The notes under the pieces are model-generated. The model made no database searches. It was given only the letters and a program-made list of their open reading frames with translations, and was not told the origin of the DNA. A DNA stretch of 64,000 nucleotides from Candidatus Moanibacter sp. (lineage in GTDB: Bacteria > Verrucomicrobiota > Verrucomicrobiia > Opitutales > UBA2987). The stretch is taken from positions 1 through 64,000 of the forward strand of contig CBDCEW010000096.1 of assembly GCA_965215885.1 (NCBI GenBank), written 5' to 3'. A program made the position numbers and the translations under genes. Below are positions 40,666 to 63,270 of the stretch, piece after piece (position 1 is the first letter of the stretch; each line of letters starts with the position of its first letter).

Positions 40666-40764
40666 TAGGAAGATGTCGGTGGTGAAATCGGCCCCGATCC
40701 ACGAACGCACATAAAGAGCAGGTCCCCACCGAAGAATCGCAAAGCGAGATCCGACAGATTCCTA
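40666..40764. mobile_element. MITE-C copy; right TIR is an empty IS110 target
   Basis: TAGGAAGATGTCGG ... TCCGACAGATTCCTA. Confidence 0.65.
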
Positions 40765-43206
40765 AAAACTATAAGTGACCGAAAACCTCGCATGCATCGG
40801 CAAACCGACCGCCAGGAGATCCCCATAACTCGCCGTCTGCAGATTCGAGTTGAACGTCTTCTCATCGAAGAGATTCAGCAAGTCCGTTTTGAATCGCCAC
40901 GGCCCCTTCTCATAAAAAAGAGAGAGATTGACGATCAGCTGATCACCAATCCTGATGCTGTCAACCATATCGAAATCATACGCTCCCTGCCACTGGGGTC
41001 CTCCGGCTATCCCGAACCCATTCTCAAATGCGTAGAGAAAATAGGCATTGAAGTAGAATAACGGAATGCCACTGTGCCGGATGTTCTGACGTCCGGGAGG
41101 AACTCCAAAAAAGGTCGTGAATCCAAGATCGTCAGCGATAATATCCGTACCGAATCCCAGCGGTGAAAGAATCACACCGGTGAGGGGATCGGGAAAGTCG
41201 ATCAGGGTTGCGTCCTGGTAGGTGAAATTGGCTACCATCCAGAATCGCTCGCCCGGTTGATAAGTCAGGTCCATTTCGAAACCCTCGACTTCGAGGTTGT
41301 CCGGCGCGGTCCCGAGAAAATTCAGCCGCACGCGCTCCTGATGGTAAGCCGCGAAGGTGAGAAGTAAGTCGTCCTTTATCGCATATTTTAGTCCCACTTC
41401 CCACAGCTCCGAGTTCGCATTCCATACTTCTCCTCCAAGGCCCTCCTCCGGGTTCCAGATAAGCCCGCCCACAAAAACGTTACCGACCAGCGTATGATTT
41501 TTCTGATAAGTGAAATACACGCTCAATTCTTCCTTTGGGCGGTAAACCAGGCTACCAGATAACGTCCACCAGAACGTTTCATCCTTGGCGGCAGCATCGC
41601 CTACAAATGGCACGGGTCCGGGAAGCGGATTTTCGATTTCACCCCATCCGTAGTCGCCCCGAGCGCTCGCATAAATGGTGAGCTTTTCTTCATAGAGTTC
41701 AATCTTGTGATTGTGAAAGAAACCGATCGTCTTGAGCGTGTCTTCCGATGTATTGAAGTTGTTGGGAAAATCAGCGCCCCCCGCTTCCGCCGTCTGGCTG
41801 GGCTTTTTGGGTATAACCACCTCGGCAAACTCGTTGAAAGTAGGAAACGGTATTCCTAGTTCCTGGCGTCGAATATCCCAATTGCGGCCCGTAGCCGGGT
41901 CCAATGTGAGATCGAAGATATTCCAGTGCTCGGCAAAGAACCGGTGGTAACTCTCATTGAAGTTATAGCGAAACGATACTCCGGTCGTGGTCTCCTGAGA
42001 GTAAGTTCCCTTTCCTCCAAAATTTCCCTGTAACTCGAATCGATTCTCAAAGACCCAGTCGTTCGGGACGTATTCGATATAGTTGTACTCGAAAACGTCG
42101 ATGTAGGTATTCCACTCCAGATAGGTGTGGTTAACCAGGGTCATATTGTCGTTAAGCTCGTAGGTCGCCTTCAAATGTCCCGTTACATTCACTCCCCTGT
42201 CCTGATCGTCGGGATCGCTGACCTGGCGCCACGGCTCGATCTTGACTTCCGTCGCGAGAGCCGCCGGCAAAATATACCCGCCCAGAATGTCTCCGAAAGG
42301 TGTGGGAATTAATATCGGAAAAGGTTGGCCGCTGAGATAGGTGAAATCGTCCACCAGATCCTGAGTCGGCCGGTTCAACCCGGTTACCGGGACCCACTCC
42401 TCGTAGTAAACCTCAGCGCTGAAATCGAGGCGAAACCTGTTGCTCGGACGCCAGGTAAGCGCGGTATAAAGAGCAAAATTGTCGGTTCCCGAAAACTCAT
42501 GCCATCCATCGGAAAGTTGCCCCGTGAAGCTCACACGGTATGCCAGCTGATCGCTGAAGGGTCCCCCTGCATCAAGTGTGAAGCTGTAATCATCCCAGCC
42601 CCGACCATCAGAAGAGATGTTACCAAAACGTGCGCCGACCGAACCGCGAAACTTATCAAAATAGGGCTTTTTTGTCGTATAATTGATATACCCACCGGTG
42701 TAACTTGAAACTCCCAAATTGGCGGGTGCCGGACCTTTTACGATTTCAATATTCTCTACCCCATTGAAGTTTGTGGGACCGGCGCTCTGCTGAAAAAATC
42801 GACGCATCCCATTCTGGTAGGCCTCCGATAAATCAGCTCTTACGAACGGCGTGCCTTGGAAACCGAAAGAGGTCACTACCCCGATTCCGGAGGAGAATTG
42901 TCGGATGTCTTCGACTAATTCGATCCCGAAAATCTCCATCTGCTCACCCGTTACAATCGCCATGGACCGAGGGATGTTAAAAACCTCGTCTGCGAAACCA
43001 TAGGTTGAACTGATTGGTTTGTCAGTGGGCACGATCATGGCCGATTGCAGGTTTTCGATGATGACATATTCACCAAGCTCCTCAATTTCCTCCTTGTCTT
43101 CCTGAGCATTCGCGCTCATCGCGAAAACAAATACGCCAACTGCGGCAATAGATATTAATCGCTTTGTCGGCGACAAATTATGATGTGTTAATTTCGCTTC
43201 TTTCAT
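40762..43206 (-). CDS. TonB-dependent receptor, similar in layout to 4348-6894
   Basis: NIPRSM, NIEIVKGP, GGYINY, NLFDEK, C-terminal Phe; start taken at ATG 43206. Confidence 0.9.
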   Translation of the reverse strand: MKEAKLTHHNLSPTKRLISIAAVGVFVFAMSANAQEDKEEIEELGEYVIIENLQSAMIVPTDKPISSTYGFADEVFNIPRSMAIVTGEQMEIFGIELVEDIRQFSSGIGVVTSFGFQGTPFVRADLSEAYQNGMRRFFQQSAGPTNFNGVENIEIVKGPAPANLGVSSYTGGYINYTTKKPYFDKFRGSVGARFGNISSDGRGWDDYSFTLDAGGPFSDQLAYRVSFTGQLSDGWHEFSGTDNFALYTALTWRPSNRFRLDFSAEVYYEEWVPVTGLNRPTQDLVDDFTYLSGQPFPILIPTPFGDILGGYILPAALATEVKIEPWRQVSDPDDQDRGVNVTGHLKATYELNDNMTLVNHTYLEWNTYIDVFEYNYIEYVPNDWVFENRFELQGNFGGKGTYSQETTTGVSFRYNFNESYHRFFAEHWNIFDLTLDPATGRNWDIRRQELGIPFPTFNEFAEVVIPKKPSQTAEAGGADFPNNFNTSEDTLKTIGFFHNHKIELYEEKLTIYASARGDYGWGEIENPLPGPVPFVGDAAAKDETFWWTLSGSLVYRPKEELSVYFTYQKNHTLVGNVFVGGLIWNPEEGLGGEVWNANSELWEVGLKYAIKDDLLLTFAAYHQERVRLNFLGTAPDNLEVEGFEMDLTYQPGERFWMVANFTYQDATLIDFPDPLTGVILSPLGFGTDIIADDLGFTTFFGVPPGRQNIRHSGIPLFYFNAYFLYAFENGFGIAGGPQWQGAYDFDMVDSIRIGDQLIVNLSLFYEKGPWRFKTDLLNLFDEKTFNSNLQTASYGDLLAVGLPMHARFSVTYSF

Positions 43207-43589
43207 TGTAATAAATCCTCTTCTTTTGGGTGGTTTCAAATGTGATTTTGCTTTCTGTATTTGCACTCCTTCTACGGGACGCGCTTTGCAAGAGCGTGCT
43301 CTGGCAACGTTAAGGTGGTAAACCACGACCTATTTTTCGCTCTCAGAATAGTTACGCAAGAGTGAATTCTATTCAGCTTATAGCAAATTAATCGCGAGCT
43401 GAAGGTTGGTCCCTGCGCACCCGACGAGTTTTCGGCCAGGCCTACCAGGGGTCAACAGATACAACAGCCCCACTCTTTCAATAAGGTACGGGCGCGGGGA
43501 TAAAGGTTTCCCTTGAATTGAAGTTGACCCTTCAAGTTGCTCTGATTTCGTAAGTTAGATTATTTCAAGCGGTTTCCTACTCAATCCGA

Positions 43590-44639
43590 ATGTCTTCAGT
43601 CAACGAAAGCGAAAGTATCGTAGAGGATAAGGCAAGCAAAAATCGATCTCCCTTCGATTCTTTCTTTTTCGATCCTTTTCTGACGAATGAGTGGTTGGCG
43701 GTTTGTCCATCATCACAGGTGCTCGAAGGGAGTGTGAAAGAGGCTAGGCTTATGGGCGAACCCCTCGTGCTGTGGCGTGCCGAAGGAAACGTCCATGCCT
43801 GGAGGGACCTCTGCATCCATCGCGGTTCAAAGCTCTCCCTCGGAAGCGTGAGAGATGGCTGCCTCGTCTGTCCTTACCACGCATGGACCTACAATGGAGA
43901 AGGGAAATGCGTGCGGGTTCCAGCACATCCTGATCTTGATATTCCCGACCGAGCCCGGACCGTTACCTACCAAGCGCAAGACCACCTCGACCTCATCTGG
44001 GTATGCCTCGGTAAACCTCGATGCGATCCGCCACCCGCTATATGGTGGCGACGGGAAGGATTTAAGACGATTCCGGCGGGTCCTTACGAATTTGATGCTA
44101 TGGGAACACGTGCAATCGAGAATTTTGCTGATGTAGCGCATCTCTGTATCGTGCACGACGGAATTCTCGGAACATCAAAGAGACCGGAAATCGAAAATTA
44201 CGCGGTCAAAATGACAGAGGAAGGAATATCTGTGCCAGGGGTTAGAGTTTTCCAACCGTCAAAATATGGAGAGGGGGAAGGAACCTATGCGCTTTACGAT
44301 TACCACATATTCCGCCCTCTTACGATCCAGTTTAAATCCTCCGTTCCCGAAGGCACCGATGCGCCCCGCCTCTCTTCCTGGCTCACGGTTTCACCGGTCG
44401 ATCGAACAAGGAGCGTAGGCTGGATATGGATTATGCATAATATCGAAGGCGTGCCAGATGCGGAAATGGTAACGCTGCAGGATACCATCCTGTCCCAGGA
44501 CCTCGCCGTAGTAAACACCCAGCACCCCGAGCTCGTTCCTCTCGACCTCTCCGAGGAATTGCACCTCGCCTCCGATCGCACCGCTGTCGAATACCGTAAG
44601 TGGCTTCGCAAATTGGGCATGCAATATGGAACTTACTAG
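43590..44639 (+). CDS. Rieske non-heme iron oxygenase alpha subunit (VanA/NdmA-like demethylase group)
   Basis: CIHRG, CPYHAW, ENFADVAHLCIVH, QD. Confidence 0.85.
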   Translation: MSSVNESESIVEDKASKNRSPFDSFFFDPFLTNEWLAVCPSSQVLEGSVKEARLMGEPLVLWRAEGNVHAWRDLCIHRGSKLSLGSVRDGCLVCPYHAWTYNGEGKCVRVPAHPDLDIPDRARTVTYQAQDHLDLIWVCLGKPRCDPPPAIWWRREGFKTIPAGPYEFDAMGTRAIENFADVAHLCIVHDGILGTSKRPEIENYAVKMTEEGISVPGVRVFQPSKYGEGEGTYALYDYHIFRPLTIQFKSSVPEGTDAPRLSSWLTVSPVDRTRSVGWIWIMHNIEGVPDAEMVTLQDTILSQDLAVVNTQHPELVPLDLSEELHLASDRTAVEYRKWLRKLGMQYGTY

Positions 44640-44640
44640 G

Positions 44641-45743
44641 CCGAAAAGCTACTGATTTACCGCAGTGAACTACGCAATATTTCTTGTAAGATTACTTTGC
44701 CAACATGAGCGACAGATCGGCAAAAGCGATGTCCCTCATTCTCGCAATTTTCTGGATCGTTCGAATTGGCCGGGTTCGTAATCGAGAAGGATCTGGAATC
44801 GAGAAAGAAACTTCGATTGGAAGATCGCACTTTGAAGGGCGCACAGCGGATACTGGCGTGAATCTTGGGGCAGGCCGGCCGCGGACGGCTTATGCGGTAT
44901 ACGTGTTCGTGATGATTCAGGGTTTTCTCTCTCGATGAGCTTGTTGCCCGGCTGATCCGTGAACCTGGTCGCTCAGCTGAGGACGACAGATTGGGGCTCC
45001 AGGAGCATGGGACGATTTCTCGACAGCACCTCGGTCTTCCGATGGGAGATTCTGAGCGGTCTTTTGATGCGGGCCAATCTCTTATTTTCGCAAGGGATGG
45101 GTTGATAATCCAAGCGAGTTTCAGATTTGTCTGGCCGCGGGCAAACCGAAGTCGAGGGCAGGAAACATCGGTTGCTCAAGCGGGGCCGCAAGGCGGCCGA
45201 ACTAACGGGGGAACTGCCATCTTGAAGAGGGCCTGTCGATTGCCTCCCACTCGCGTAGCCATCGCCAAGCGGGTTGTTGAGTATGCTCATGATATCAAAT
45301 CGGCCGACATAGGGCAGCCGGGCGAACGTTTGCCTGACGTAACTCTGAGCTGGCGCCGGCCATCGGAGATGATCAAGCGCACCTGTCATTGCTCGCCGCG
45401 ATGACGGATATCGGCGCGATGCTGAGCCTGGGGGTGCAGAACGAAGGGCAAGAAGTTGGTCTTGGCGTATCGCGAGGCACGGCTCCGCAGTGGAGTCGCG
45501 TTCATGGCGAATCGGCCGCCGATCGATGCGGTAGGCGATGAACGTCATAATGGCTTCTGCCGCATCGGATCTGGTGGACGGAACAGGCAGCCCGCTGACC
45601 GCTTTGAAGCTCAGAGAAAAAAGCACCACGGGATGAGTATGCCTACCAGTTTCAAGCGTGCAAATATACGTATTGTGCAGCAAGTCCCACGCCGATGGCA
45701 TTCGTCTCAATACCTGCTCAGCCGGCAGCGATGCGGCAGCCTA
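44641..45743 (+). mobile_element. Multiply deleted relic of the 10233-12149 IS, inverted
   Basis: Collinear near-identical blocks such as CCGAAAAGCTACTGAT, GATTCTGAGCGGTCTTTTGATGCGGGCCAATC and CTGACCGCTTTGAAGCTCAGAGAAAAAAGCACCACGGGATGAGTATGCC. Confidence 0.85.
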
Positions 45744-46726
45744 CAAGAGCGTCATCACCAACATGCTCACATCAGGGCCGGCAGGGGCCTATTGGAAGGA
45801 GTATCTAAACTTTTCAAGCAGCAGCGAACATTCATTGCTAACGGCAGCTATGCGCATCCTTTCCGGCGAGTCACGGACAGCGATGGTGATAAGCTGGAGC
45901 AAATGTTCAGAATCGCCTATCCCTGTCACGGAGCAATTGACTACCGACTCCGATTTATCAGCGCGGCCTCGGCCTGAACGGTCTCGCGGCATCCGCCTTG
46001 CAGTGCCAGTGTTATAAAGAAAAATATGAAATAGCCGGGTCCGCGGTTGCTGATGTCGTCGTCAAGAATCGGTCCAATGCGACGGCCAACCCATTGGCTC
46101 ATCTCAGGTTACCGATAACTCGGGAGGAGGTAGATTCTTCTCCTTTTATCGCCTTGCCCTTGAGGCAACTGCAGGTTCCTCCCTATTCGGACGGTGTCTG
46201 CGTTCTAATCGTGGCCACTCCGGAGAGAGCATTGGCACTCACTCCCAATCCATCCTGGATTCAGGGAATGGGTTGGGCCTCGGATACCTACTGGATGGGC
46301 GATCGTCCCCTGGTGCAACTCACCTCTCTGAAAATTGCAGCCAATCAGGCCTATGCGATGGCCCAAATCGGAAACCCCGCCGAAGAGATCGATGTCTCCG
46401 AAGTTCACGACACGACCGCCTATCACGAGCTTATGGCATATGAAGCCCTTGGATTTTGTGACGAAGGTAAAGGAGCCGAATTCATGCTTTCCGGCTCCAC
46501 GCGGAAAAGCGGCACGCTCCCGGTCAATCCTTCAGGGGGCGCACTCTCCTCGAACCCCGTTTTCGCCACCGGCCTGGTGCGGGTAGCAGAGGCCGCTCTT
46601 CAAGTCATGGGTAGAGCCGGTGAACGTCAGATTCCGGATGTTGAAAGGGCCCTGGCTCATGCCACCCATGGATTCGCTTCCCAGGGAAACTCAGTTTTTA
46701 TCCTCGGAAACGAGCCACTCTCATGA
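45744..46726 (+). pseudogene. SCP2/Ltp-type thiolase-like protein, 5'-truncated and frameshifted near 45950
   Basis: KNRSNA..NP.AH, SEVHD, PVNPSGG, TGLVRVAEA; N-terminal part in another frame abuts the IS relic. Confidence 0.75.
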
Positions 46727-47913
46727 GCGCGGGAAAAGTGGCAGTCATTGGCAGCGGCCAGACAGTTTACAGCTCCCGAAGCGAGTTCACTTATCCTGAA
46801 CTCGTGGAGCAGGCAACGAGCGCGGCTCTAGCCCAGGCCGAACTCACTATTGATGACATCGATGCCGTCGTCTTCGCGCTCGCACCGGACGCCCTCATAG
46901 GAGTCAACCATGGCGAGCGCTGGTGCGTCGACGCAATTGGAGCTCAGGGAAAACCATTTATGCGCGTAAACACAGGTGGCAGCACCGGCATGTCCGCGTT
47001 TCTCGCCGGATATTTTCATGTCGCGTCAGGACTTTTCCGGCGAGTCCTGGTGTCAGGTGCCGATCGCGTTGGGGAGAGCGGCGATTCTCAACAGATTCTC
47101 AACAAAATGTGGGACAAAAACTACGAGCGTCCCCTCCCCTTAAACGCCATCAATATGCTGGCCCTTCAGGCAACTCGCTACATGCATCGTTACGATGTCA
47201 CGGAAGAGCAAACTTCCCTCGTCTCGGTCCACGCTCACAAAAACGGGATGAATAATCCTCTCAACCAGATTCGTGTGGAGGTCTCCATCGAGGATGTCAT
47301 GAATTCTCGCCCAATTTGCTGGCCGATCAAACTTTACGACGCCTCCCCCGCATCGACCGGTGGGTGTGCCGTCCTCCTCGCCGCCGAGGCAGAAGCCGAG
47401 AGCGGCCCGTTGCCACCTGTCTGGGTTCGGGCTGTATCTCACGTAGCCGACACCTATTACATCGGCGACCGCATGGGACCTGCCGCCGTGAGCGATTATG
47501 CCGATTGCGATGCTCAGGCCGAATCTACGCGAAGGGCCTATCGCATCGCTGGCATCACTAACCCGCGGAAACAATTCGATGTAGCAGAGCTCTACTATCC
47601 TTTCAGCTGCGTCGGACTCCACATGGTCGAGGCCGTCGGTCTCGCCGAAAAGGGTAAGGCCCACAATCTGTTTGAAGAAGGAGTTTTCGATATGAACGGC
47701 GAGATCCCAGTCAACCCCTCGGGAGGTCTCCTCTGCGCACACCCTATCGCCGTGACTGGCCTCGTCCGGGTTGCCGAAGCCGCCTTGCAACTCCAGGGTC
47801 GCGCCGGTCAGCACCAGGTACCTGGTGCCAAAACCGCTCTCACCACCGGTATCGGCGGTACCCACGAATTCTATGGCACCGTAATACTCGGGGTCAGTCC
47901 TGAATGGCGCTAA
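46723..47913 (+). CDS. SCP2/Ltp-type thiolase-like protein (non-canonical, possible retro-aldolase)
   Basis: NTGGSTG lacks the thiolase Cys; AELYYPF, PVNPSGG, HPIAVTG; last 3 residues come from the IS. Confidence 0.85.
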   Translation: MSAGKVAVIGSGQTVYSSRSEFTYPELVEQATSAALAQAELTIDDIDAVVFALAPDALIGVNHGERWCVDAIGAQGKPFMRVNTGGSTGMSAFLAGYFHVASGLFRRVLVSGADRVGESGDSQQILNKMWDKNYERPLPLNAINMLALQATRYMHRYDVTEEQTSLVSVHAHKNGMNNPLNQIRVEVSIEDVMNSRPICWPIKLYDASPASTGGCAVLLAAEAEAESGPLPPVWVRAVSHVADTYYIGDRMGPAAVSDYADCDAQAESTRRAYRIAGITNPRKQFDVAELYYPFSCVGLHMVEAVGLAEKGKAHNLFEEGVFDMNGEIPVNPSGGLLCAHPIAVTGLVRVAEAALQLQGRAGQHQVPGAKTALTTGIGGTHEFYGTVILGVSPEWR

Positions 47914-47987
47914 GATAAGCCAAAAATAATTGTAAAAAATATGTAAAAAAGCTTGTACTATGACCGTTAGTAGACTAATCTTGTTGT

Positions 47988-48997
47988 ATGAAAAATATGA
48001 CAAGATTCCTGCCTGGGTTTAATCACATTCTATGCGGTCGCCCGCCTAAGTCGGCCCTGGCACAAGTAAAGATCCTCGGGGCAAGCCCCGAGGCATTTGA
48101 TATTAGACTTTATGAATTAGAAACGAAGCAAGCTTCGGGGAATTAAACCCGAAGCGATTAAAAAACCATGAAAGCGGCATTTTGCGCAAATTCGTTGGGT
48201 ATTTGAAAAAAGCAGAGGTGGTTCTGTGCGACCGCGGTTATTGCTCTTATGCCAATCTGGGGCTGCTTCTAAACCATCAAATGGACGCGGTCATGCGCCT
48301 GCACCAAAGGCGCAAATGCGACTTCCGTAGCGGCCAAACACTGGGCCGATACGATCGGCTGGTGACCTGGAAAAAACCGCAGAGACAGCACGGGTTCAGC
48401 CCGGAAGAATGGGCTCAATTACCGGCCGAACTGACTCTGCGAATGGTGCGTTTCTTCGTTCAGATCAAAGGATTCCGTACCCGAAAGATCGATCTTGTGA
48501 CCACCTTTACCGACCCCCTCCAATACACCGTAGAGGATCTGGCCGATCTCTACTTCCGCCGCTGGTCAGTGGAACTGTTTTTTCGCGACATTAAAACGAC
48601 TATGAAGATGGAAACGGTACGCTGCCTTACTCCCGAAATGGTGCATAAGGAAATCCAGCTGTTCTTTATCGCCTATAATCTCATCCGCGCCCTCATGCAA
48701 CACGCCGCCACCCTCTATCAGCGTGACCTGCATCGGCTCAGCTTCAAGAGCACGGTCGACACCGTTCGGCAGTACTGCACCGCTCTGAACGCCACCCGCA
48801 AGCAACCTCGAAAGCAACAACGCATCATTGACGAGATGGTTCTGATTATTGCCGAGGAGACTGTTCCACTACGAGAACACCGCAGCGAACCACGAGCGGT
48901 CAAACGAAGACCGAAACCTTACCAATTACTAACGAAGCCGCGAGGGAAAATGAAAGTCTCGCGCTCGCGCAGAAACAAAGGCAAAAATCGTCGTTAA
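47988..48997 (+). pseudogene. IS4 transposase missing its N-terminal/central part
   Basis: MKNMTRFLPG...ALA, then the hairpin element, then ...CDRGY...YFRRWSVELFFRDIK; first catalytic Asp region absent. Confidence 0.85.
48065..48156. mobile_element. 92-bp hairpin element copy 3
   Basis: Identical to copy 1; ATTAAA flank. Confidence 0.9.
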
Positions 48998-49114
48998 TCG
49001 GGCTTATCTTAGCGCCATTCGGGTCAGTCCTTGATTCTTGACATTTTTCAATACCTCTGAGCCTTCTTTCCCAATACGAAATCGGAAATGTCAAGAATCA
49101 AGGACTGACCCCGA

Positions 49115-49600
49115 GTGGCTGAAGAACATCCAACCATAGAGCAGCGATGGGACATCACCTACCGCCACTCCACGGGCGAGACTGCGGCCTACTTTTTTGA
49201 GAAACTGAAGGGGAGGCAATTCGTCGGGAAACAGTGTCCGAAGTGCCACAGGGTGCTCATGCCGCCGCGCGCTTTCTGCGACCGATGCCACGCCTCCACG
49301 GAAAAGTGGGTTGACGTAGAATCACACGGAACAATCGAGTCATCCACGATAATCTATCATCCCTTTAAGGGCATGCCGGAAGTCCCCTACGCATTGGCCT
49401 ATGTTCTGCTTCAAAATGCAGGCACAGCCATGTTCAACTTCGTGCGTGGGATTGACCTGACGGAACCGAGGGAGGCGGCCGGAAAACTGGAGATCGGAAC
49501 AAGAGTCAATGTCGCCTTCATCGACCAACCGGAAGGCGCCATGACCGATTTCTGGTACGAGATAGCCACAAAAGAACGCAAAGATCCTAACGCAGCGTAG
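49115..49600 (+). CDS. Zn-ribbon/OB-fold (DUF35/ChsH2-like) protein
   Basis: CPKC...PPRAFCDRC, VPYALA. Confidence 0.85.
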   Translation: MAEEHPTIEQRWDITYRHSTGETAAYFFEKLKGRQFVGKQCPKCHRVLMPPRAFCDRCHASTEKWVDVESHGTIESSTIIYHPFKGMPEVPYALAYVLLQNAGTAMFNFVRGIDLTEPREAAGKLEIGTRVNVAFIDQPEGAMTDFWYEIATKERKDPNAA

Positions 49601-49743
49601 CCGCAAAGAAGAAGAGAACCGCAGATGCACGCGAATGGACACGAATCACTCTCCAGACAAAGCCAAATTTCGAATTTGTCCGTTCCGACACCTTCCCTGA
49701 ATCACTCTTTTTTTGCGTTCTCTGCGTTCTTTCGTGGCTATGA

Positions 49744-51354
49744 TTAGATACCGTCTAAGCTTTCGCCCTGCTTCTTCAGACGCGAAATAAACCACTCCTG
49801 AAGCCCCCTCTTATTGACTTTCCCCGTATCGGTCAGTGGCATCTCCTCGTTGGTCATAAACGCGAATTGAGCCGGCACCTTATAAGCCGCCAACTCCGTC
49901 CGGCAAAATTGCCGCAATTCATCCACTGTCATTTGATCTCCCTCCCGGAAAACAACGGCAGCCGCCAGCACTTCATCTTTCTCCGAATCCGGAATACCCA
50001 CAACAATAGCCTGATCGATACTGGAGCAGGATAGCAGGACCTCCTCGACCTCAGCCGGCGCCACGTTTATGCCCCCGGTCTTCACCATTTCTTTGATCCT
50101 CCCGCGGAAGTGAAGATAACCTGCCTTATCAAAAAGGCCGAGATCGCCGGTGAGAAAGAATCCTTCTTTATCGAATGGAGAGTGTGACGAATTTTCGGGA
50201 CGGTGGTAGCCTTTCGTCACGTAACCGCGAATTTTGATCTCACCGACATCACCTTGCGCTAACGGACGGTGTGTTTGTGGATCGGCGATGACAACTTCGG
50301 TCCCCGGGAGCGGCCTGCCACAAGTGCGGGTACGGATCTCAGGGGAATCCCTACCGTCATTAACGGTGCTGTTGCCATAGCACTCTGTTAAACCGTAACA
50401 ACTCGCCACTTCCGTGGCCCCCAGTTCAATCAAATGGGGTACCGCTGGTGGCAGGGTAAGACCGCTTCGCAGGCTGGAGAGATCCCGCCCACCGCGTCCC
50501 GCGCACCCGTGCAAGGCAAGCGCCATATTCGGTACCGCGTAAAGCGCGGTGCAATGCTCGCGCTTGATCAGCATTAATGCTTCCTCGGGATCAAAACGAT
50601 GCTGCAGGACAATGCTGCTCCCATGCGTCATCACCGCAAAGAGCGCATTTCCACAAGCAAAAATCCAAAACAGTGATACGCCAAGCAGCATGCGGTCTTT
50701 TTCCGTCAGGTGCATGCGTTCACCGATTCCGTGCATATTCTCAATCAGCCCGTAATGCTGAACTGGCACCGCCTTAGGCCACGCCGTCGAGCCGGACGTA
50801 TACAACAGGTAGGCAACGTCGCCCGGTTCGACCGTCTCTTGAATCTGATCGATTACGCTGTCCGGGATGTCTTTTCCAAGCTCCCATATTTCCGCGAGCG
50901 AACGTATTCCAGGGCGCTCTCCACCACCCAGGCACACAATTTCGCGCAATTTTGGCACCGCCTCGTTGCGATTTTCCATATTCTGCACCATCGCCAGATA
51001 ATCGTGCTTTAGATAGCGATCGACCAGGACGAGCACCGAGGCTTCCGCATGAGCCAGAGCGTAATGCAACTCCCTCTGTCGCCACCAGGTATTCAGCCCA
51101 AGGAGCGTGCCTCCCAGCATGGTCACGGCAAAATCGACCAGAAGCCACTCCGTCTGGTTTCCCATCAGAAGCGCCACCGTCTCCCCCTTCTTGACCCCAA
51201 TTCTGTAAAACCCCTTGCCCAGATCACGCACCCGGTGTCGAAACTCCGAGTATATTAATCGCTCGTCGCCATAAACCAGAAATTCACGCTCCGGGTACCT
51301 CCGGACCATCTCGTCGAGCAATCCTGGCATAGTGCGACTATCCGGCATTCTCAT
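49744..51354 (-). CDS. AMP-forming acyl-CoA synthetase
   Basis: YTSGSTAWPK, YGLTE, TGDLG, GKV. Confidence 0.9.
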   Translation of the reverse strand: MRMPDSRTMPGLLDEMVRRYPEREFLVYGDERLIYSEFRHRVRDLGKGFYRIGVKKGETVALLMGNQTEWLLVDFAVTMLGGTLLGLNTWWRQRELHYALAHAEASVLVLVDRYLKHDYLAMVQNMENRNEAVPKLREIVCLGGGERPGIRSLAEIWELGKDIPDSVIDQIQETVEPGDVAYLLYTSGSTAWPKAVPVQHYGLIENMHGIGERMHLTEKDRMLLGVSLFWIFACGNALFAVMTHGSSIVLQHRFDPEEALMLIKREHCTALYAVPNMALALHGCAGRGGRDLSSLRSGLTLPPAVPHLIELGATEVASCYGLTECYGNSTVNDGRDSPEIRTRTCGRPLPGTEVVIADPQTHRPLAQGDVGEIKIRGYVTKGYHRPENSSHSPFDKEGFFLTGDLGLFDKAGYLHFRGRIKEMVKTGGINVAPAEVEEVLLSCSSIDQAIVVGIPDSEKDEVLAAAVVFREGDQMTVDELRQFCRTELAAYKVPAQFAFMTNEEMPLTDTGKVNKRGLQEWFISRLKKQGESLDGI

Positions 51355-53226: not shown

Positions 53227-53297
53227 TTTCAAATTAGCGGGGCCGCCCACGCGTTATGGCTTACAAGATCAAAAGGGTGTGAAACTTCCGACAGGAA

Positions 53298-53708: not shown

Positions 53709-53800
53709 AGTAAAGATCCTCGGGGCAAGCCCCGAGGCATTTGATATTAGACTTTATGAATTAGAAACGAAGCAAGCTTCGGGGAATTAAACCCGAAGCG
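53709..53800. mobile_element. 92-bp hairpin element copy 4
   Basis: Identical to copy 1; ATTAAA flank. Confidence 0.9.
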
Positions 53801-53823
53801 ATTAAATAAGACCCCGGTGAACG

Positions 53824-54698
53824 ATGAAGAATTTGTCGATAGTCGAATCCGCCCGCACTTCACGATCCTCCAGGATTCCCAACACCCGCCTCAAGCGGAT
53901 GCTCGCCGTTATTCTCGTTTCCCTCAAACGGTCGAAAAGCGCCGGTGCCTTCTACCTGAATTTTATAAAGCGGCTCCTCGACGGGGTTCTCGCTTCTGTC
54001 CTTCGCAATAAACCTGCTTTCGCGATGGCCGCCGCCGCCGCGTTCACGGTCAACCTCCCGCCACCGCTTTACGCAGTGGATGTCCCCTTCGGCGCCCAAC
54101 AGGTAATCAGCCTGGCGGATGGCGCCACCTTCGCCTTTGCCGTGGACGGGGATGGGGACATCGACGCGCTCTCGGCCTCGTTTCGTGACGACAAGATCGT
54201 CTGGTTTGACAATACCAATGGGGTTGGAACCGCCTGGACGGCTCGAACCATTACGCCCGCGGCGGATTACGCCTACTCCGTCTTTGCCGGGGACGTGGAC
54301 GGGGATGGGGACATCGACGCACTCTCGGCTTCCCGTAATGACGATAAGATCGTCTGGTATGAGAATACGAATGGGGTTGGAACAGCCTGGACGCCTCGAA
54401 CCATTGCGACCGGGGCGGATTTCGCGTTCTCCGTCTTTGCCGCGACGTGGACGGGGATGGGGACCTCGACGCCCTCTCGGCCTCTACTTATGACGATAAG
54501 ATCGCCTGGTATGAGAATACCAACGGGGTTGGAACAGCCTGGACGGCTCGAACCATTACGACCGGGGCGGATTACGCCTACTCCGTTTTGCCGCTGACGG
54601 GGACGGTGACGGGGACATCGACACGCTCTCGGCCTCGCTTTCTGACGACACGATCGCCTGGTTTGAGAACCGTGGAGGACAGTTTGGCCTCACGACCA
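53824..54698 (+). pseudogene. FG-GAP/VCBS repeat protein, frameshifted and truncated by IS1380
   Basis: Four ~150-bp repeats encoding DVDGDGDIDALSAS..DDKI.WYEN; frame breaks near 54440 and 54590. Confidence 0.85.
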
Positions 54699-56552
54699 CT
54701 AATCCTAAAATAAGCGCGTTTAAAGGTTGAACAGGAAACTTCGTTATTCCTAACGTTATTTGCCATGCTGGCGGTAGTTTTGCCGCCGCCACCCTTGGGC
54801 TGGTTTCATGTTTTGCTTTTTTTGAGTCATATCCGTTCTGTTTTAACGTTAGTTCTGTCCCCTTTTTTGGATACGCCGACAGTCCTTCCGTTGTGGCTGT
54901 GCGTTCGCGGTTACTTGATCTGCTACCCAGGCGACATAGATCGGAATCGCTCCCAGGTGCTGATAAAATCTCCCATCCACTCGTTCCAGCTTAAAAGCCG
55001 ATAAACAATTCGGCGCCCGCTTCGGATGATTTGCGCGGGGAGCAAGATGATGGCGTGAAGGAAGCGCCGAAACTCCATCTTCACGATCTCCAACCCCCGC
55101 TGGCGGTTGGGCATGAGTAATCCATACCACGCCTTCAGGTTCCAGGCCAATGCTGTCATTACCATATAGGCCCAATTGCTCAAAAGATCATCCACGGGCA
55201 TACGCATCGCATTAACCCCGTTTTTGAGTTGCTCAATAACGTTCTCCTGATCGCAGCGTTGATTCGCAAAGGCGACCACCTGCTCCTTAGTCAGGTCCCT
55301 ACGATTTGTGATATAAAAAAAGTAGCGGATCTCATCAAAGAGCACTACTTCGCCCTTTTGCACACTGATGTTCTTACGCACCACCACCATCCGATAGGTC
55401 TTTTTGCACTTGTTGGGCCGATAGTCCAACTCGGCCACACTTTCTGCCTCCAGCACCTTGTTTTCAAAACCCTTCTGGTGCACGATCCCTTCCTTCACTC
55501 GCGGCGCTTTAGCTCTCGATTCGGTCGCTATTTCATGCTTGGGCAACCGCTCCAGTTCGCTCCAGGCCGTCTCTCTGAACTCCTCGGCCAGTCCCACCAC
55601 TTTGGGATGCGCATCCATTCCGAAGATAAATCCCGTTCCTTCTTCATCCCACCGATCGAAGTTTTCTGTCAACGAAAAGTCCGTATCCCCTCGCAAGCAG
55701 ATTTTCCCCGCATGCGCACGCACAAGTTCCACCGCCCGATCAATCCACTTTACGCATCCCTCATGGCTAGTCTCATTGCCCGGTCGATTCACCATGTAGA
55801 GCACTTCCCTGGTATTTGCCAAACTCACGATCAGCGGTGCATAGCCCCAGATCCCCTTATAGCTTATTCCCATACCCCCTTTGCACTTCCCTCTCGTCTG
55901 CGCTATCGTCCCGTCCACATCGATGAACGCCTCCTCCATGAATCCTTTTGCCTGCTTGTTCCACACCCCTTGCCGTATCCGGTTGATCCCTTCCATCAAT
56001 TTTTCGATCGCGCCTTCATCAAAGCGTCGGGTGAAGTCTCCACTGGTCGTCGGATCCGGTATCCTCTGCGCTCCTAAGGCATTCAGAAAAACCTCGTCCT
56101 TGCGGCGCAATTCGATGTCTTCGAGCCGGATCCCTCCCAATAATGCGTTGTAGGCTATGTTGAGCACATGATCACTCTCATGATACGGCAGGTGGCGCTT
56201 GAGCAACTGCACGCTCTGGTCGAGCTCTTCCACCAACCCCAGTCTCTTCACCATCAGGTGAATCGCTCCTATCCCTCCACAACTCACCCCTTTGCCTCGT
56301 TCGGCCGTCTCGTAGTGGATGTTGCTCGCTTTGAACATCGGTTTGGCCTGTTCAGGCCAGCCCCGATTTCTAAGCCGATGCTTTATTCTTCTCTTGCTAT
56401 TGTGGAGGTTCTTGCGGTATCTTCTTTTCACTCGAAACGTCCTTTTTTCTGGGTGGTTTTTTTGGTCGATTAACAGTTTTCCCAGTATCTAAGCGCGTTT
56501 CGAGCTTTTTATTGCGTTAGGTATATTCCAATCACACTTGTTCGAGGTCTAG
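54699..56552 (-). mobile_element. IS1380-family element; no TSD seen
   Basis: Imperfect TIR CTAATCCTAAAATAAGCGCG versus CTAGACCTCGAACAAGTGTG; unrelated broken genes on the two sides. Confidence 0.75.
54923..56431 (-). CDS. IS1380-family transposase
   Basis: PDPTTSGDF, IDVDGT, LRGDTDF, RCDQENVIEQLK. Confidence 0.9.
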   Translation of the reverse strand: MKRRYRKNLHNSKRRIKHRLRNRGWPEQAKPMFKASNIHYETAERGKGVSCGGIGAIHLMVKRLGLVEELDQSVQLLKRHLPYHESDHVLNIAYNALLGGIRLEDIELRRKDEVFLNALGAQRIPDPTTSGDFTRRFDEGAIEKLMEGINRIRQGVWNKQAKGFMEEAFIDVDGTIAQTRGKCKGGMGISYKGIWGYAPLIVSLANTREVLYMVNRPGNETSHEGCVKWIDRAVELVRAHAGKICLRGDTDFSLTENFDRWDEEGTGFIFGMDAHPKVVGLAEEFRETAWSELERLPKHEIATESRAKAPRVKEGIVHQKGFENKVLEAESVAELDYRPNKCKKTYRMVVVRKNISVQKGEVVLFDEIRYFFYITNRRDLTKEQVVAFANQRCDQENVIEQLKNGVNAMRMPVDDLLSNWAYMVMTALAWNLKAWYGLLMPNRQRGLEIVKMEFRRFLHAIILLPAQIIRSGRRIVYRLLSWNEWMGDFISTWERFRSMSPG

Positions 56553-58573: not shown

Positions 58574-58755
58574 CTAGCCCGGACATTTCACACACATCGT
58601 AGCGAGATCGCGTAGCTTGCTGGGAATCAATGCCCTATCGCAGTCCGGCGGGCGACAGCGTGTTAGAACCTTCTGAGGTCGCGGGACAAGAGAAGGCTTT
58701 GAGACGCAGTGAGATCCGCGATCGCAGCAGATGGTTTGTGAAATGTCCGGGCTAG
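58574..58755. mobile_element. MITE-A copy 4 (diverged)
   Basis: TIRs, CTAG flanks, 182 bp. Confidence 0.9.
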
Positions 58756-58863
58756 GAATTTGCCGGACGTTAGTACGTGTGTAGCGTGATTTGAAGCTGC
58801 CCCGGTCTTGCGCCGGGGTGCCGCACGTTTTACAGCTACAATCAGTCAATGGCACCGCGCTTA

Positions 58864-58919
58864 CCCTCCGCCCCTTCTCGCCCCAGTGCGCCCGGACTGG
58901 GGCGAGAAGGGGCGGAGGG
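58864..58919. repeat. Perfect 24-bp-stem hairpin inside a larger palindromic element
   Basis: CCCTCCGCCCCTTCTCGCCCCAGT-8 nt-ACTGGGGCGAGAAGGGGCGGAGGG. Confidence 0.85.
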
Positions 58920-58972
58920 CATGGAAGCATCCGGTGTATAGCAAGAAGCGTGCACCACCCCGGCGCAAGACC

Positions 58973-60346
58973 CATAAGCGCTAACTTGTTTGCTGACCTG
59001 GGAATCTGACCTCTAACTGTGGTCGGCGTTGCCGTGGAGACTCTGCTAAGCCTTGAGCTATATCGTTCCAATTTTCTATCACTTGTCGCAAAGGCACAGC
59101 GGGATCGACGGCCCGCTGGAGTTGATGGAAGACGAAGGCAAACTCACGCCATCGACTCTGCTGTTTTTTCCGGCTCCAGGACATATCCCCAGGGGGAAAT
59201 AGAGATCGCACTTTGAATGATCTTCTCGGTGATCAGGGCCGCGAAGAGCTTGCCATAGAGCCACGCCTTGGCGCTTTCATCGTCATACTTAGGCAGATGT
59301 CCTAACTGTGCGATCTGTTTGAATCGTTTGAAGACCAGTTCCACCTGCCAGCGGATACGATACCATTCGAGCACCTCCAGTGCGGAAAAGAGCGATTCAG
59401 GAAAAGTCGTCAGCACCATGACGTATTCGGCGTAATAGAGCGTTTCGGGCATCAGCTTCTCGCCCCGCCTGCTGGCGATTCGCCGCAATCTCTTGTGGGC
59501 CATGGCGATCGCTTGCTCGCTTTTGCGGATGGCACACACCCGCGCTGGCAACGGGGGCTGATCCGATGCGGGCACCATGACTGGCCAAGCGCCCACCTTG
59601 CCACCGGCCCCGATCTGCTCCAGGCAGGCGGTCAGGTTCAGAACCTCTCCCCGAGGATCGAGCAGCCGTATGTTGTGCGGTGCCAGCCGTATACTTACAA
59701 AAGCCCCTTGGGAGGCTGCATATTGAAGCCCGGAAGCCTGGCAGTATCCCCGATCGGCGATCACGTAGTCACCTGCTGCCAGCGGAAACTGTCTAAGCGA
59801 CTCGCCGGTGCCTTCACCTTGCGCTGGCGTAAGTTTGAAAAAATCGCACGCCATCGAAGGAACTCGCAAGCTATAGTGCACACGCCACAAGCTGCCCGTC
59901 TTCCCGGGTTCCTTCACCATCGTCGCATCGATCAGACGAAACTCCCGTTGCCCCACCGCCCCCAAATCCAGGCCACGCTCGCGAAACAATGCCACGCACA
60001 GCGAATAAAGCCAGTCCTTGCACTTGCGCAGCCGCTTCAGCAACGCTACGTCTGACAGTTCCGCCAACTGCGCCTGGCGCGCACGCACCACGGTTTCGCG
60101 CAGCGAATACCCACATGCCAGGTGCACCATCAGAATCCTCAGCAACTTCCCAGGTGCCTTGTCCCGGCGCAATCCCTTCAACGCGTTGGTCTTCTTAGCC
60201 AATTCTTTCCATTGCGGCGGGAAAAAAGACATCAGCACGCTCCAGTCTTCATCCATCATGGTCGACCTCCCTTCAATTCTGCTAACCTGTTGCGGAAGTC
60301 CACAGCAGGAAATGCACTATGTCAAGCAAACAAGTTAGCGCTTATG
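58973..60346 (-). mobile_element. IS4-family element with an 11-bp TSD
   Basis: TIR CATAAGCGCTAACTTGTTTGC; GGCGCAAGACC at 58962-58972 and 60347-60357. Confidence 0.95.
59144..60259 (-). CDS. IS4-family transposase
   Basis: IDAT, ADRGY, YRIRWQVELVFKRFK. Confidence 0.95.
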   Translation of the reverse strand: MMDEDWSVLMSFFPPQWKELAKKTNALKGLRRDKAPGKLLRILMVHLACGYSLRETVVRARQAQLAELSDVALLKRLRKCKDWLYSLCVALFRERGLDLGAVGQREFRLIDATMVKEPGKTGSLWRVHYSLRVPSMACDFFKLTPAQGEGTGESLRQFPLAAGDYVIADRGYCQASGLQYAASQGAFVSIRLAPHNIRLLDPRGEVLNLTACLEQIGAGGKVGAWPVMVPASDQPPLPARVCAIRKSEQAIAMAHKRLRRIASRRGEKLMPETLYYAEYVMVLTTFPESLFSALEVLEWYRIRWQVELVFKRFKQIAQLGHLPKYDDESAKAWLYGKLFAALITEKIIQSAISISPWGYVLEPEKTAESMA

Positions 60347-60430
60347 GGCGCAAGACCGGGGCAGCCGGCAATCGAATGCAGGACGCTAAACAGGTACGGA
60401 CGTTACGTCCGACAGAAAACTGAGGTAGTC

Positions 60431-60436
60431 CGTCAA
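60431..60436 (-). promoter_or_regulatory. -35 box of the IS110 circle-junction promoter (-10 TATAGT at 62110-62115)
   Basis: Joining the ends at CT gives TTGACG-N17-TATAGT. Confidence 0.8.
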
Positions 60437-60467
60437 GGGATTTTTTGAGTTTTTTCTCATGTTGTGT

Positions 60468-61778
60468 TTACAAGGCGTTGGCATTTGCTTGCTGAAGTCT
60501 TTTCCACACCGGTGAACCGGTGCGTTGGAGCGATTGGAGATACTTTTGCTCATCGTAGCGTTCGCTATTTTGCCAACAGCGAAACAGAATGCGGGTCCAC
60601 TTGAGAGCGAGGGCACGAAGAATGGTTTGGCGGGGTTTGCCCTGTTCTTTTTTGATCTGGTAAAAGGCCTTTGCCCAGGCACAGTTTCGGATCGAATGTT
60701 CGGCAAATTCAACGAAACTTTGCCGCACGAAGGTAGGAGCCGCCCACCGCCAGTTGACCATTCGTTTCGGTTGTCCGGTTCTTTTGTCCTGCCCGCTGTT
60801 GATCGTGACCGGAGCGGATCCATTCCACTGGGTCATGTTCTGGGCCGTTTCGAAGTGCGAACGATCGGTCCCGAACGCGCACAGCAACCGGGGACTCATG
60901 ACCTCGCCGGCTCCGGGAATGCCACTGAACACGGCTGCATCGGGATGGCTTCTGAATAGCTCCCTGATACGCTTCTCATACGCTTTGATCTGCGGGCACA
61001 GGGTCAAAAGCTGTCCGGCCAACGTCTGTGCTTTTCTGCTGGATGCTTCAATGATGGCTGCATCTTCGGTCAAGGCTCGTGCGTTACCGATCAATTCGAG
61101 ACGCTCCTGGATTTTGGCGTCACTGCGACAGTTGTGCTTATAGAAGAACTTTCGCAAGACACCCTCCGATGCTCTGTGCAGCTTCTTGAGGGTCGGCCAA
61201 CGCAATATAAAGTGCAGGCACAGGCCACTGCCTAGATCATCGAACAATTTCAAGACCAAAGGGTTATATTGCTTCAGACAACTGCCCAACTGCTGTTCGA
61301 GGCTGGTAGCCTGATCGACGAATCCACGGCGGTCCTCGCACAACAGGTTCAGCTCCCGTGTTTGGGCCGTGTCAGGTATGAAACATTTGGTAAAAAGCTC
61401 GGGATGTTTGAGGAAAAACTCCGCGTGTATTTGCGCATCGACCGGGTCGCTCTTGGCCCCTGATGGATACAGCGCCCGGCGATAATCCTTCGCCCTGGCC
61501 GCATGCACTGGATAGATATCGACAAACTCCAAGCCCATCAGAAAGTTGATCAACCCTCCTCGCTTCTGGTCCACCACCATGGCCATGCGCTTGCCCACGC
61601 TGGCATACTTTTCTCTCATCTCTACGGCAAATTCGTGCAAGCTGACCGCATCCTGCGCCACCTGTCGATGGGTCCCTTTTCCCGTTTCGCTCTCTATGAT
61701 CCACAGATCGTTTTTCTGATCCGCCCAATCAATTCCTATCACCACACTATATCGATTTGTTTTTTCCCTTTTCTGCAT
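60468..61778 (-). CDS. IS110-family recombinase
   Basis: GIDWAD, KSDPVDA, IPGAG, APVTINSG; intact. Confidence 0.95.
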   Translation of the reverse strand: MQKREKTNRYSVVIGIDWADQKNDLWIIESETGKGTHRQVAQDAVSLHEFAVEMREKYASVGKRMAMVVDQKRGGLINFLMGLEFVDIYPVHAARAKDYRRALYPSGAKSDPVDAQIHAEFFLKHPELFTKCFIPDTAQTRELNLLCEDRRGFVDQATSLEQQLGSCLKQYNPLVLKLFDDLGSGLCLHFILRWPTLKKLHRASEGVLRKFFYKHNCRSDAKIQERLELIGNARALTEDAAIIEASSRKAQTLAGQLLTLCPQIKAYEKRIRELFRSHPDAAVFSGIPGAGEVMSPRLLCAFGTDRSHFETAQNMTQWNGSAPVTINSGQDKRTGQPKRMVNWRWAAPTFVRQSFVEFAEHSIRNCAWAKAFYQIKKEQGKPRQTILRALALKWTRILFRCWQNSERYDEQKYLQSLQRTGSPVWKRLQQANANAL

Positions 61779-61811
61779 CCCTTTGTTCCTTTAGTTTGTC
61801 TTTTTGCTTTT

Positions 61812-62101
61812 TTCAAAGGCACTGGATGTCCAGGCGAAGTCCTTATAGTTGGATCCTGTTATGAGGATGTAAACTGAGTGTTCGTTTTCGGTCATCCAGG
61901 CAGGCCGTCCACTCGAAATTCTGTCGGAAGTCCTCTTCGGACTGATTCCTAAGTTCGTAGTGGACGGCTGCCTTTGAATATTTTCACCCTTAGCCAAACA
62001 ATCTCTTTGACCCATCGCCAACCACTGATCGGCCAAGTTATTCACAAAGGGGCCTCGCCGAGTTTTTCCTGCGGCTCCACTCGGCCCCTTGGATGAATAA
62101 C
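61812..62101 (-). ncRNA. Predicted IS110 bridge RNA: two 5' hairpins, target-binding loop, donor-binding loop
   Basis: Hand-folded stems with internal loops whose sequences match the target flanks and donor junction. Confidence 0.85.
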
Positions 62102-62121
62102 CTGGAGCTACTATAAGATTC

Positions 62122-63270
62122 CTATGGCATTCCAAGCTCCTGACAGAAGGTATTAAAGGGGAGAATGCGTTGTCCCGTTTCTTCGTCACCAAAGTCGTTA
62201 TGACCGATGTGAACGAAGAAGAAACGGGGAATGTCGGTGCGTTGTCTGAAGTATTCAAACCTTGAGGAAGCTTTGGATTCGTTGAGCTTGCATTCTACAG
62301 CGAACTCAGCCTTCCCATCTCTTAATACGACAAAGTCGACTTCTCGTCTATCCGTATCACGGATGAAGCGAAGCTCCATTTCGAAGCCTTCTGTGTCTTC
62401 GATGTAACAGCAGTACTTTAGCAGTTGGCAGGCCACGAGATTTTCAAAACGGGCGCCCGCGTCGGATACTCGAGTCCAATCCCAGAAATAGAGCTTGTTC
62501 TCTTTCTTAACCGCACGGATCTTCTTGTGACCAAAGGGAGGAATACGGAAGACTGTATAGAGCCGCTCCAATATCGAGATCCAGCTCTCTATTGTTTCAT
62601 GGGCTACCCCTAACAGAAGACTGATCGAACGAATCGACAGAGGCGACCCAACACATTCAGGTAGATGATTAAGGAGGAGTTCGATTTTGGATACGTCACG
62701 CACCTGCTCCAATTCTCGCAGATCGTCATACACGACTCTTGCCGTGTATTCACGTAACCATCGTCTATGAAATCTGGCAGTCGCTCTAAATAGTGGTTCG
62801 GGAAACCCTCCAAATGATAGTAGCTGCTCCAGGTCGGAAATGGTAGGGCTTCGAGTGAGTTCCATGAGCGAGAGCGGGAAAAGCCTGAGAAAATGGTAAC
62901 GACCCTGAAGCGAATCACCACCTCTTCGATAGTAGTCGAGACGCGCCGAGCCGGTAACCAGAAATGAGATTTTGCTCTTATGTTTGTCGTAGTACCCCTT
63001 GACTAGATTTCGCCAACCTCCGAATTTGTGAATTTCGTCAAATATGACCAATGGCTGCTTCGATGGTAGATGGCCGTCGAGAATGCGCTTTCGGTCAGCC
63101 AGCGAATCCCAGCTGAGGTAGGCAGGATGAGATTCTTTTGCGTTTTCCGGCCGGAGACATTGCAGGGCCAAGGTTGTCTTACCCACTTGGCGTGGCCCTC
63201 CCACAATGACCATTCTGTTTTCCAAATCGGCTTTGACTGCTTCCAAGAGATATCTCTTAACTGGAATCAT
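62122..63270 (-). CDS. AAA+ ATPase (AAA_14 with DUF4143-type C-terminus)
   Basis: GPRQVGKTT, FDEIH, TGSA, SLQGR, EVDFV...VECK. Confidence 0.9.
   Translation of the reverse strand: MIPVKRYLLEAVKADLENRMVIVGGPRQVGKTTLALQCLRPENAKESHPAYLSWDSLADRKRILDGHLPSKQPLVIFDEIHKFGGWRNLVKGYYDKHKSKISFLVTGSARLDYYRRGGDSLQGRYHFLRLFPLSLMELTRSPTISDLEQLLSFGGFPEPLFRATARFHRRWLREYTARVVYDDLRELEQVRDVSKIELLLNHLPECVGSPLSIRSISLLLGVAHETIESWISILERLYTVFRIPPFGHKKIRAVKKENKLYFWDWTRVSDAGARFENLVACQLLKYCCYIEDTEGFEMELRFIRDTDRREVDFVVLRDGKAEFAVECKLNESKASSRFEYFRQRTDIPRFFFVHIGHNDFGDEETGQRILPFNTFCQELGMP

Follow-up and report, generated by a model that had tools for sequence, protein, structure and literature searches.

An IS621-type IS110 element whose predicted bridge RNA is very probably directed at the terminal inverted repeats of IS1182-derived MITEs

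We analysed a window of 64,000 nucleotides (positions 1-64000 of contig C96) from the genome of Candidatus Moanibacter sp. (6.36 Mb in 105 contigs; completeness 90.3%, contamination 5.47%), which contains an insertion sequence (IS) of the IS110 family. This element is very probably of the IS621 type, with a bridge RNA programmed for the terminal inverted repeat of a family of miniature transposable elements with inverted repeats (MITEs) derived from IS1182. The reading is carried by the limits and copy number of the element, its use of a single insertion point and a single orientation, the identity between guides and target, the kinship of the repeat with IS1182, and the covariation of guide and target in an orthologue. 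For comparison, 41 genomes were searched for the repeat and for the IS110 (threshold E <= 1e-40). Both were found in only two of them, the Moanibacter genome and a relative from another genus of the same family (3 contigs, 96% complete), hereafter the relative.

The Moanibacter genome holds ten full copies of the IS110, each with 0-3 differences from the window copy, and three partial matches; ten near-identical copies point to recent activity. The recombinase gene is preceded by 337 bp and followed by 54 bp of non-coding sequence, which is the layout of the IS110 group. Both recombinase domains score above their cut-offs, with 64.5 bits against 29 for PF01548 (DEDD_Tnp_IS110) and 38 bits against 21.3 for PF02371 (Transposase_20), and the protein matches the ISCro4 and IS621 structures weakly (E about 1e-4). 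The residues that we take to be the DEDD tetrad and the catalytic serine, by comparison with the IS621 motif, are listed in the table, and D17, D111, D114, and S328 are invariant in an alignment of nine proteins (9/9).

Nine of the ten copies are inserted at AGGAATCT/GTCGG (the slash marks the insertion point): nine left flanks end in AGGAATCT, nine right flanks start with GTCGG, and a single orientation is used. The partner MITE end is found 86-88 bp away in six of these nine on-target copies, while in the window copy it lies beyond nested elements. Among 24 public sequencing runs listed, 17 hold at least half of the sequence words of the IS110. Two of four runs compared contain a collapsed contig corresponding exactly to 60409-62124, that is, the IS110 with the target flanks shared by its copies. 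One loose contig end in these runs equals the MITE copy at C36 and another the copy at C41, both of them empty in the Moanibacter genome, and we read these ends as probable filled sites in other populations. No empty window site was present in the contigs of four of the 24 listed runs.

The upstream non-coding end of the IS110 is predicted to fold into two stem-bounded internal loops (z = -5.26), none of 200 shuffled sequences being as stable. The same fold is obtained for the orthologue of the relative, with 2 of 57 base pairs compensatory; an Rfam search of the predicted RNA gave no meaningful match. IS621 likewise has two guide loops in its upstream non-coding end (PMC11208160). In the first loop, the putative guides spell the target on both sides (8/8 left and 8/8 right), in agreement with the initial annotation, which had proposed this programming. 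In the second, the donor guides match the joined ends of the element, CTCAGTTTTCT/TATAGT, at 9/10 positions on the left and 8/8 on the right. Contigs from RNA runs cover the bridge-RNA region; such contigs do not reveal strand or ends.

Table. Coordinates of the IS110 element, its predicted RNA and guides, and the associated repeats in the window
Feature	Position	Strand	Remarks
Unoccupied 31-bp mini copy of the MITE	21281..21311	.	two ends, 7-bp spacer
Unoccupied 92-bp MITE copy	40669..40760	.	perfect end adjoins stop codon of ORF 40762-43326
CTAG flank and left end of host MITE	58752..58768	+	GAATTTGCCGGAC, 2 mismatches
Second repeat element nested in MITE	58773..60397 (limits inferred)	.	inverted GTACGTGT(T/G)TAGCGT-type ends
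IS4-family element in second element	58972..60347 (+/- one base)	-	ORF 59144-60259, NF033592 over cut-off; 9-bp direct repeat GCGCAAGAC
Inner part of split MITE end	60407..60413	-	GTCGGAC
IS110 element	60414..62115	-	1702 bp including one CT core (60414-60415); ends common to 10 full copies in the genome
-35 box of predicted circle-junction promoter	60431..60436	-	TTGACG; 17 nt to -10 box if ends joined
IS110 recombinase ORF	60468..61778	-	436 aa; D17, D70, D111, D114, S328
Predicted bridge RNA core	61813..61978 (ends approximate)	-	from fold; target-binding loop, then donor-binding loop
Right donor guide	61842..61849	-	ACTATAAG; complement of core CT + TATAGT; 8/8
Left donor guide	61869..61878	-	CTCAGTTTAC; 9/10 to the element's own right end; 10/10 to the C84 site
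Right target guide	61921..61928	-	TCCGACAG; complement of core CT + GTCGGA; 8/8; unchanged in the relative
Left target guide	61944..61951	-	TAGGAATC; target positions 1-8 identical; 8/8
-10 box of predicted promoter	62110..62115	-	TATAGT; first six bases of IS110
Outer part of split MITE end	62116..62121	-	GAATCT, including core
Outer flank	62122..62125	+	CTAT (imperfect CTAG); minus-strand TAG = stop of AAA_14/DUF4143 gene 62122-63270

The target belongs to an abundant repeat. Its 15-mer TAGGAATCTGTCGGA has 124 perfect copies in the Moanibacter genome, and AGGAATCTGTCGGA occurs 159 times, its reversed control not once. Counted in the window only, the motif is modestly enriched, with 8 matches at up to 2 mismatches against 2.44 expected, a number reached by 1 of 100 shuffles. 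The four occurrences in the window given in the initial annotation were recovered: the perfect copy at 40750-40764 (minus strand), the arms at 21279-21292 and 21300-21313 (14 nt, 93% complementary), and the diverged copies TAGGAATTTGCCGGA (58753-58767) and TAGGAAGATGTCGG (40666-40679), with 2 mismatches each. Of 159 neighbouring 11-mer matches less than 400 bp apart, 136 face inward and the other orientations account for 9, 7, and 7, with spacing peaks at 20, 73, and 81-82 bp. An inward partner exists for 163 of the 293 exact 11-mers; the other 130 have none at up to 1 mismatch within 400 bp. The 143 paired copies are 31-181 bp long, 24 of them being 31-bp forms, and have unrelated interiors. 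Terminal inverted repeats, a short non-coding interior, and many copies are the marks of a MITE, as the initial annotation had supposed for the motif.

The same annotation had described the landing pad as intergenic, which is mostly the case: 267 of the 293 exact motifs fall outside ATG-initiated ORFs of at least 150 aa, such ORFs making up 74.7% of the genome. The TAG at a MITE end terminates a long frame in 58/164 cases, compared to 2407/84994 for all TAG, and the window site behaves likewise. Overlap of the IS flanks with ORFs was also counted, but shadow frames confound that result and we set it aside. The MITE is indeed an element with terminal inverted repeats, as first proposed; its limits needed correction, as GAATC is its first sequence and the (C)TAG before this belongs to the flank. 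The GAATCT-type 13-mer prevails among the ends, with 256 copies against 7 of the GAGTCT type.

The origin of the repeat was indicated by a scan of named genomes with CTAGGARTCTGTCGGAC, which gave at least 79 loci. Among the matches listed, three distinct elements of 1536, 1595, and 1703 bp (L119, L126, and L172) have perfect GAGTCTGTCGGAC ends with CTAG on both sides and encode IS1182 transposases above the NF033551 cut-off, and a fourth of 1934 bp carries a similar ORF that was left unscored. The ends of the first three are exact for the GAGTCT form of the MITE end and one base off for the GAATCT form. Also among the matches listed, the GAGTCT form is found in 74/79 loci, and the far flank, which the query did not constrain, is CTAG in 19/28 distinct paired elements. 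A count from a separate search, CTAG on both sides in 21 of 26 scored (4/30 loci had no pair), is biased as that query carried CTAG, and is not used as proof. Because intact IS1182 elements have GAGTCTGTCGGAC ends and CTAG flanks, we regard the repeat as an IS1182-type end, the element starting at GA after CTAG. The repeat has in common with the IS1182 family and its derived MITEs the end GA(G/A)TCTGTCGGAC and flanking CTAG; for one member, ISPse1, PMC3281130 gives a duplication of 4 bp. In contrast to the scan loci, which are mainly GAGTCT, the Moanibacter ends are mainly GAATCT. A TA duplication of the IS630 kind (TA on both sides in 74/250 candidates) was dropped in favour of CTAG after inspection of the flanks in the relative and of the IS1182 elements.

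The autonomous element with this end that the initial annotation had proposed to look for exists in other genomes, in the GAGTCT form; no intact one was found in either of the two genomes studied here. Family and protein searches found only fragments of IS1182 in the Moanibacter assembly (90% complete), and only fragments in the relative, where one search scored 99 of 566 candidates. None of the long inverted pairs of the Moanibacter genome is an IS bounded by this end, and those holding a transposase look nested by eye. An ISNCY-like element (window 10456-12126) was rejected as mobiliser of the MITE since its ends differ; its transposase (NF033593, 258 bits, under the cut-off) has about 100 copies in the genome, a very large IS expansion.

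That no intact cognate IS1182 was found in either genome would also suit a repetitive extragenic palindromic (REP) or REPIN-like family spread by a Y1 (RAYT) transposase, the whole system then being an analogue of IS621 in REPs. The 31-bp hairpins, the palindromic character of several longer copies, and the many Y1_Tnp matches (29 in the Moanibacter genome, 75 in the relative) point the same way. We nevertheless judge this explanation very improbable, as intact IS1182 elements flanked by CTAG have the G variant of the end at their limits, CTAG is so frequent at the far flank left free by the query, and the paired ends surround unrelated interiors in copies of 31-181 bp. Long Y1_Tnp proteins (about 330-370 aa), RAYT-like, number about 15 in the Moanibacter genome and about 25 in the relative.

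The assignment of the target guide to an IS1182-type MITE end is further supported by the orthologue in the relative (79-80% amino-acid identity, 25 matches). Its left guide reads TAGGAGGC instead of TAGGAATC (A6 to G), while the right target guide is kept. Correspondingly, the 23 left junctions of the relative comprise 20 GAGTCT, 2 GAGGCT, 1 GAGCCT, and 0 GAATCT, in a genome that offers 281 copies of AGGAATCTGTCGGA (GAATCT sites) and 237 of AGGAGTCTGTCGG. CTAG precedes all 23 occupied ends and follows 18/18 of the partner ends found.

A single 61-bp MITE subfamily takes 17/23 of these insertions, and its 40 best-scoring copies are 94-100% identical; recent amplification of the MITE is visible only in the relative. 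The GAGTCT preference might then reflect the age or accessibility of this subfamily rather than the guide change. In addition, wobble between a G in the guide and the base that faces an A of the target is conceivable, IS621 showing this at position 4. The explanation seems improbable to us: in four occupied elements (L037, L050, L053, and L057) the IS110 chose the GAG end though the far end has the GAATCT form, the six insertions outside the 61-bp class are still GAG-type, and the A-guide copies of the Moanibacter genome are at GAATCT in 9/9 cases. P values of about 1e-8 for the preference treat the copies as independent and are not leaned on. Among distant IS110 relatives (34-44% identity), eight loci checked of ten had no motif nearby save one weak hit, so these relatives do not show the target to be ancestral. 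A third clade, P0004 (70% identical), has no locus in the nine genomes of the family.

Several points weigh against the proposed programming of the IS110 for an IS1182-type MITE end. The bridge RNA is predicted from its fold and from covariation, and the circle junction was absent from the contigs of the four runs inspected out of the 24 listed. Since two orthologues only were available, the covariation amounts to one evolutionary event. The top family match of the recombinase, NF033542, reaches 119.2 bits, below the cut-off of 140, which places the protein in a divergent subgroup; the presumed second catalytic position is D70 in the four closest proteins and E in the other five of the alignment. 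For the two on-target copies of C104, a partner end is lacking over 140 bp. The C59 copy has the same right flank as the C25 copy and a similar but diverged left flank, so the independent sites number 8 or 9; this sharing suggests recombination between copies, or a mis-join. One further loose contig end of the public runs, out of two that were searched, had no match in the Moanibacter genome. CTAG stands on both sides of just 10/143 paired Moanibacter copies, and no true empty MITE site was recovered, one search giving a single hit that consisted of mosaic repeats and another none. Owing to these last two results, we only infer a 4-bp duplication.

Following the IS621 model, the IS110 would form a circle whose junction would create a TTGACG-17-TATAGT promoter, a combination that the linear element lacks, and transcription from it would produce the bridge RNA. 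Recombination across the CT core would then take place between the circle junction CAGTTTTCT/TATAGT and the target TAGGAATCT/GTCGGA. About 250 landing sites, mostly intergenic, would be offered by the MITE ends, and pairing of two donor loops might occasionally send the element to a donor-like site.

Such a site is probably occupied by the tenth copy, on contig C84, at CTCAGTTTACT/TATGGG. An IS110 copy in unrelated sequence would speak against the targeting proposed in the initial annotation; nine copies are in the motif, and this one, although outside it, is at a donor-like rather than a random sequence. At this site, 10/10 positions agree with the left donor guide and 6/8, plus one possible wobble, with the right donor guide; the target guides are not matched. 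The left donor guide and the site share an A at the position occupied by T in the element's own end. Successive portions of one membrane-protein gene lie on the two sides of the copy, and homologues of this gene run uninterrupted over the site; a second frame break was seen by eye a few codons downstream, and the gene halves have no Pfam match. Donor-like insertions have been described for IS621 in E. coli (Durrant 2024, PMC11208160; Hiraizumi 2024, PMC11208158) and for IS622 in human cells (10.1101/2025.05.14.653916). Most likely, the C84 copy represents a natural donor-donor insertion.

This insertion was read from the assembly, whose contamination was given above, and some 11 kb of C84 are present twice in inverted orientation (1-about 11500 against 43679-55142; 99.7% identity), a duplication that starts within an IS110 copy and includes the right junction of the insertion. 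An assembly artefact, or the remnant of an older IS end, could therefore be envisaged. Either is unlikely in our view, given that the flanks join into one gene with homologues continuous across the site, and that a copied IS end would not give A in place of T. Duplicated ends resembling those of C84 are found on other Moanibacter contigs and are probably haplotigs. Donor-like copies amount to 1/10 in the Moanibacter genome and 0/23 in the relative.

In the window, the IS110 splits the right end of one MITE pair, as the initial annotation had stated, with the partner end at 58756-58768. Insertion replaces the last three bases of the inner MITE end and leaves six bases of the outer one. Two further elements are nested in the window copy, which is therefore no simple MITE, and its outer flank makes the duplication imperfect at this locus. 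By analogy with other DDE ends, the split MITE would probably lose its mobility, as the initial annotation had inferred. In a genome where no transposase is found, such immobilisation matters little.

The pad had also been called self-renewing, a claim that we do not retain. The paired Moanibacter copies are old and mosaic, with a median nearest-neighbour identity of 86% and only 10/116 at 95% or more, and the landing pad is a legacy of past MITE bursts with no sign of present renewal in this genome. An actively transposing MITE, with the IS110 as a hyperparasite that disables the MITEs it enters and tracks the youngest subfamily, would agree with the concentration of insertions in the homogeneous 61-bp subfamily of the relative and with the partial ends left by insertion. 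It is doubtful all the same, considering the age of the Moanibacter copies, the fragments as sole remains of IS1182 found in both genomes, and an occupancy of guide-type ends of about 3% in the Moanibacter genome (9/265) and 9% in the relative (23/260), which means weak pressure on the MITE. Somewhat more plausible, and still tentative, is a chain of parasites at three levels, in which IS1182 would have driven the MITE bursts and the IS110 would have been retuned, with single-base resolution, to the end variant on offer (GAATCT in the Moanibacter genome, the young GAGTCT subfamily in the relative), disabling copies and using a donor-donor route in its native host.

Compared to known systems, the element shares with IS621 and IS622/ISCro4 the upstream end with its (predicted) two loops, the CT core, a predicted junction promoter, a repeat as target, and rare donor-like insertion, which is probable here. 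It departs from these in aiming at a transposon end instead of a REP, in a right target guide that covers 6 bases past the core, and in a donor-like insertion in a native host genome, where theirs are reported from laboratory assays. The recombinase also differs, at 436 aa, by its weak similarity and by D in the presumed place of the catalytic E.

Partridge and Hall reportedly described IS4321 and IS5075 in the terminal repeats of Tn21-family transposons in 2003. These are likewise IS110-family insertions in the terminal inverted repeat of another mobile element. They belong to the IS1111 group, with the non-coding region downstream (PMC11187229). The present case differs from these Tn3-family ends in having an IS110-group element and a 13-bp IS1182-type end found mostly in non-autonomous copies. 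In Coxiella burnetii, 20/21 IS1111 copies are in QMITE2, at a GTAG REP inside the MITE (PMC5896051). Here too a MITE family is the landing pad of an IS110-family element; the differences are that the site is the terminal repeat itself and that a (predicted) guide is identified. PMC11187229 further reports ISEc21, an IS110-group element aimed at IS3-family transposase genes, and the orthologues ISEc11 and ISXne4 (72% identity), whose guide and target have naturally changed, with 3/13 target bases shared. The orthologues compared here resemble that pair in their natural guide and target change, and differ from it, as it is described there, by a one-base target difference of which both variants exist in hundreds of copies in the relative. 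No publication in which an IS110 element targets IS1182 ends came up in our literature searches, although the supplementary target tables of Durrant and of Siddiquee could list one.

The IS621 mechanism, insertion in the terminal repeat of another element, the MITE landing pad, and natural retargeting are thus known already; the particular features are that the target is of the IS1182 type, that coexisting variants are told apart by one base, and that a donor-donor insertion has probably occurred in nature. IS1182-type ends would be added to the mobile-element sites targeted by bridge RNAs. The orthologue pair constitutes a natural test of guide specificity, with one base, two abundant variants, 23/23 discrimination, and tolerance of a mismatch at position 7 of the guide. 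Donor-donor recombination is known from genome engineering as an off-target route; judging from the C84 copy, it may occur in nature as well and is able to break a gene. With its putative D-for-E active site and long right target guide, the clade is a candidate for recombinase screens.

Other observations concern the elements themselves. At position 62002, the window copy of the IS110 has one left-end base unlike that of all nine other copies and four public runs, either a private change or a sequencing error. One of the two partnerless C104 copies (L004, 1416-3315) lies between tRNA-His and tRNA-Arg. In the relative, IS200-type Y1 elements have inserted in two IS110 copies (L054 and L056), in one case within the left end at 18 bases.

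Among the matches of the scan of named genomes, many are elements of about 160 bp that lack a long ORF. Elements of 158-162 bp with IS1182-type ends and CTAG flanks form a widespread family, present in records of Proteobacteria, Nitrospirota, Desulfobacterota, and Verrucomicrobiota; L101, L102, L105, L107, L115, and L121 are among them. Within the Moanibacter genome, an element of 182 bp that has CTAGCCCGGACATTTCACA at its ends (103 exact copies; window 58574-58755 and 40436-40617) often joins the IS1182-type MITE via a shared CTAG. Many copies of the 92-bp MITE are followed at one end by a module starting with GAAAATGAA(A/C)CTGA (71 copies), which also follows the 61-bp MITE of the relative; this module might be a MITE of its own or belong to a composite unit. 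In reverse complement, its first approximately seven letters are those of the left donor guide. An IS1380 element (window 54700-56550) has TAG/CTA-type flanks, and other copies of it come directly after a MITE end, e.g. at C104:25677.

The second repeat family, nested in the window MITE, has TACGTGTTTAGCG ends in 44 exact copies, and its sequence GCTGCCCCGGTCTTG occurs in 97 exact copies. Like the window IS4, IS ends starting with CCAT recur in this family right after GGTCTTG(T/C)GC, which is possibly a second system of targeted insertion, one that would operate without an RNA guide.

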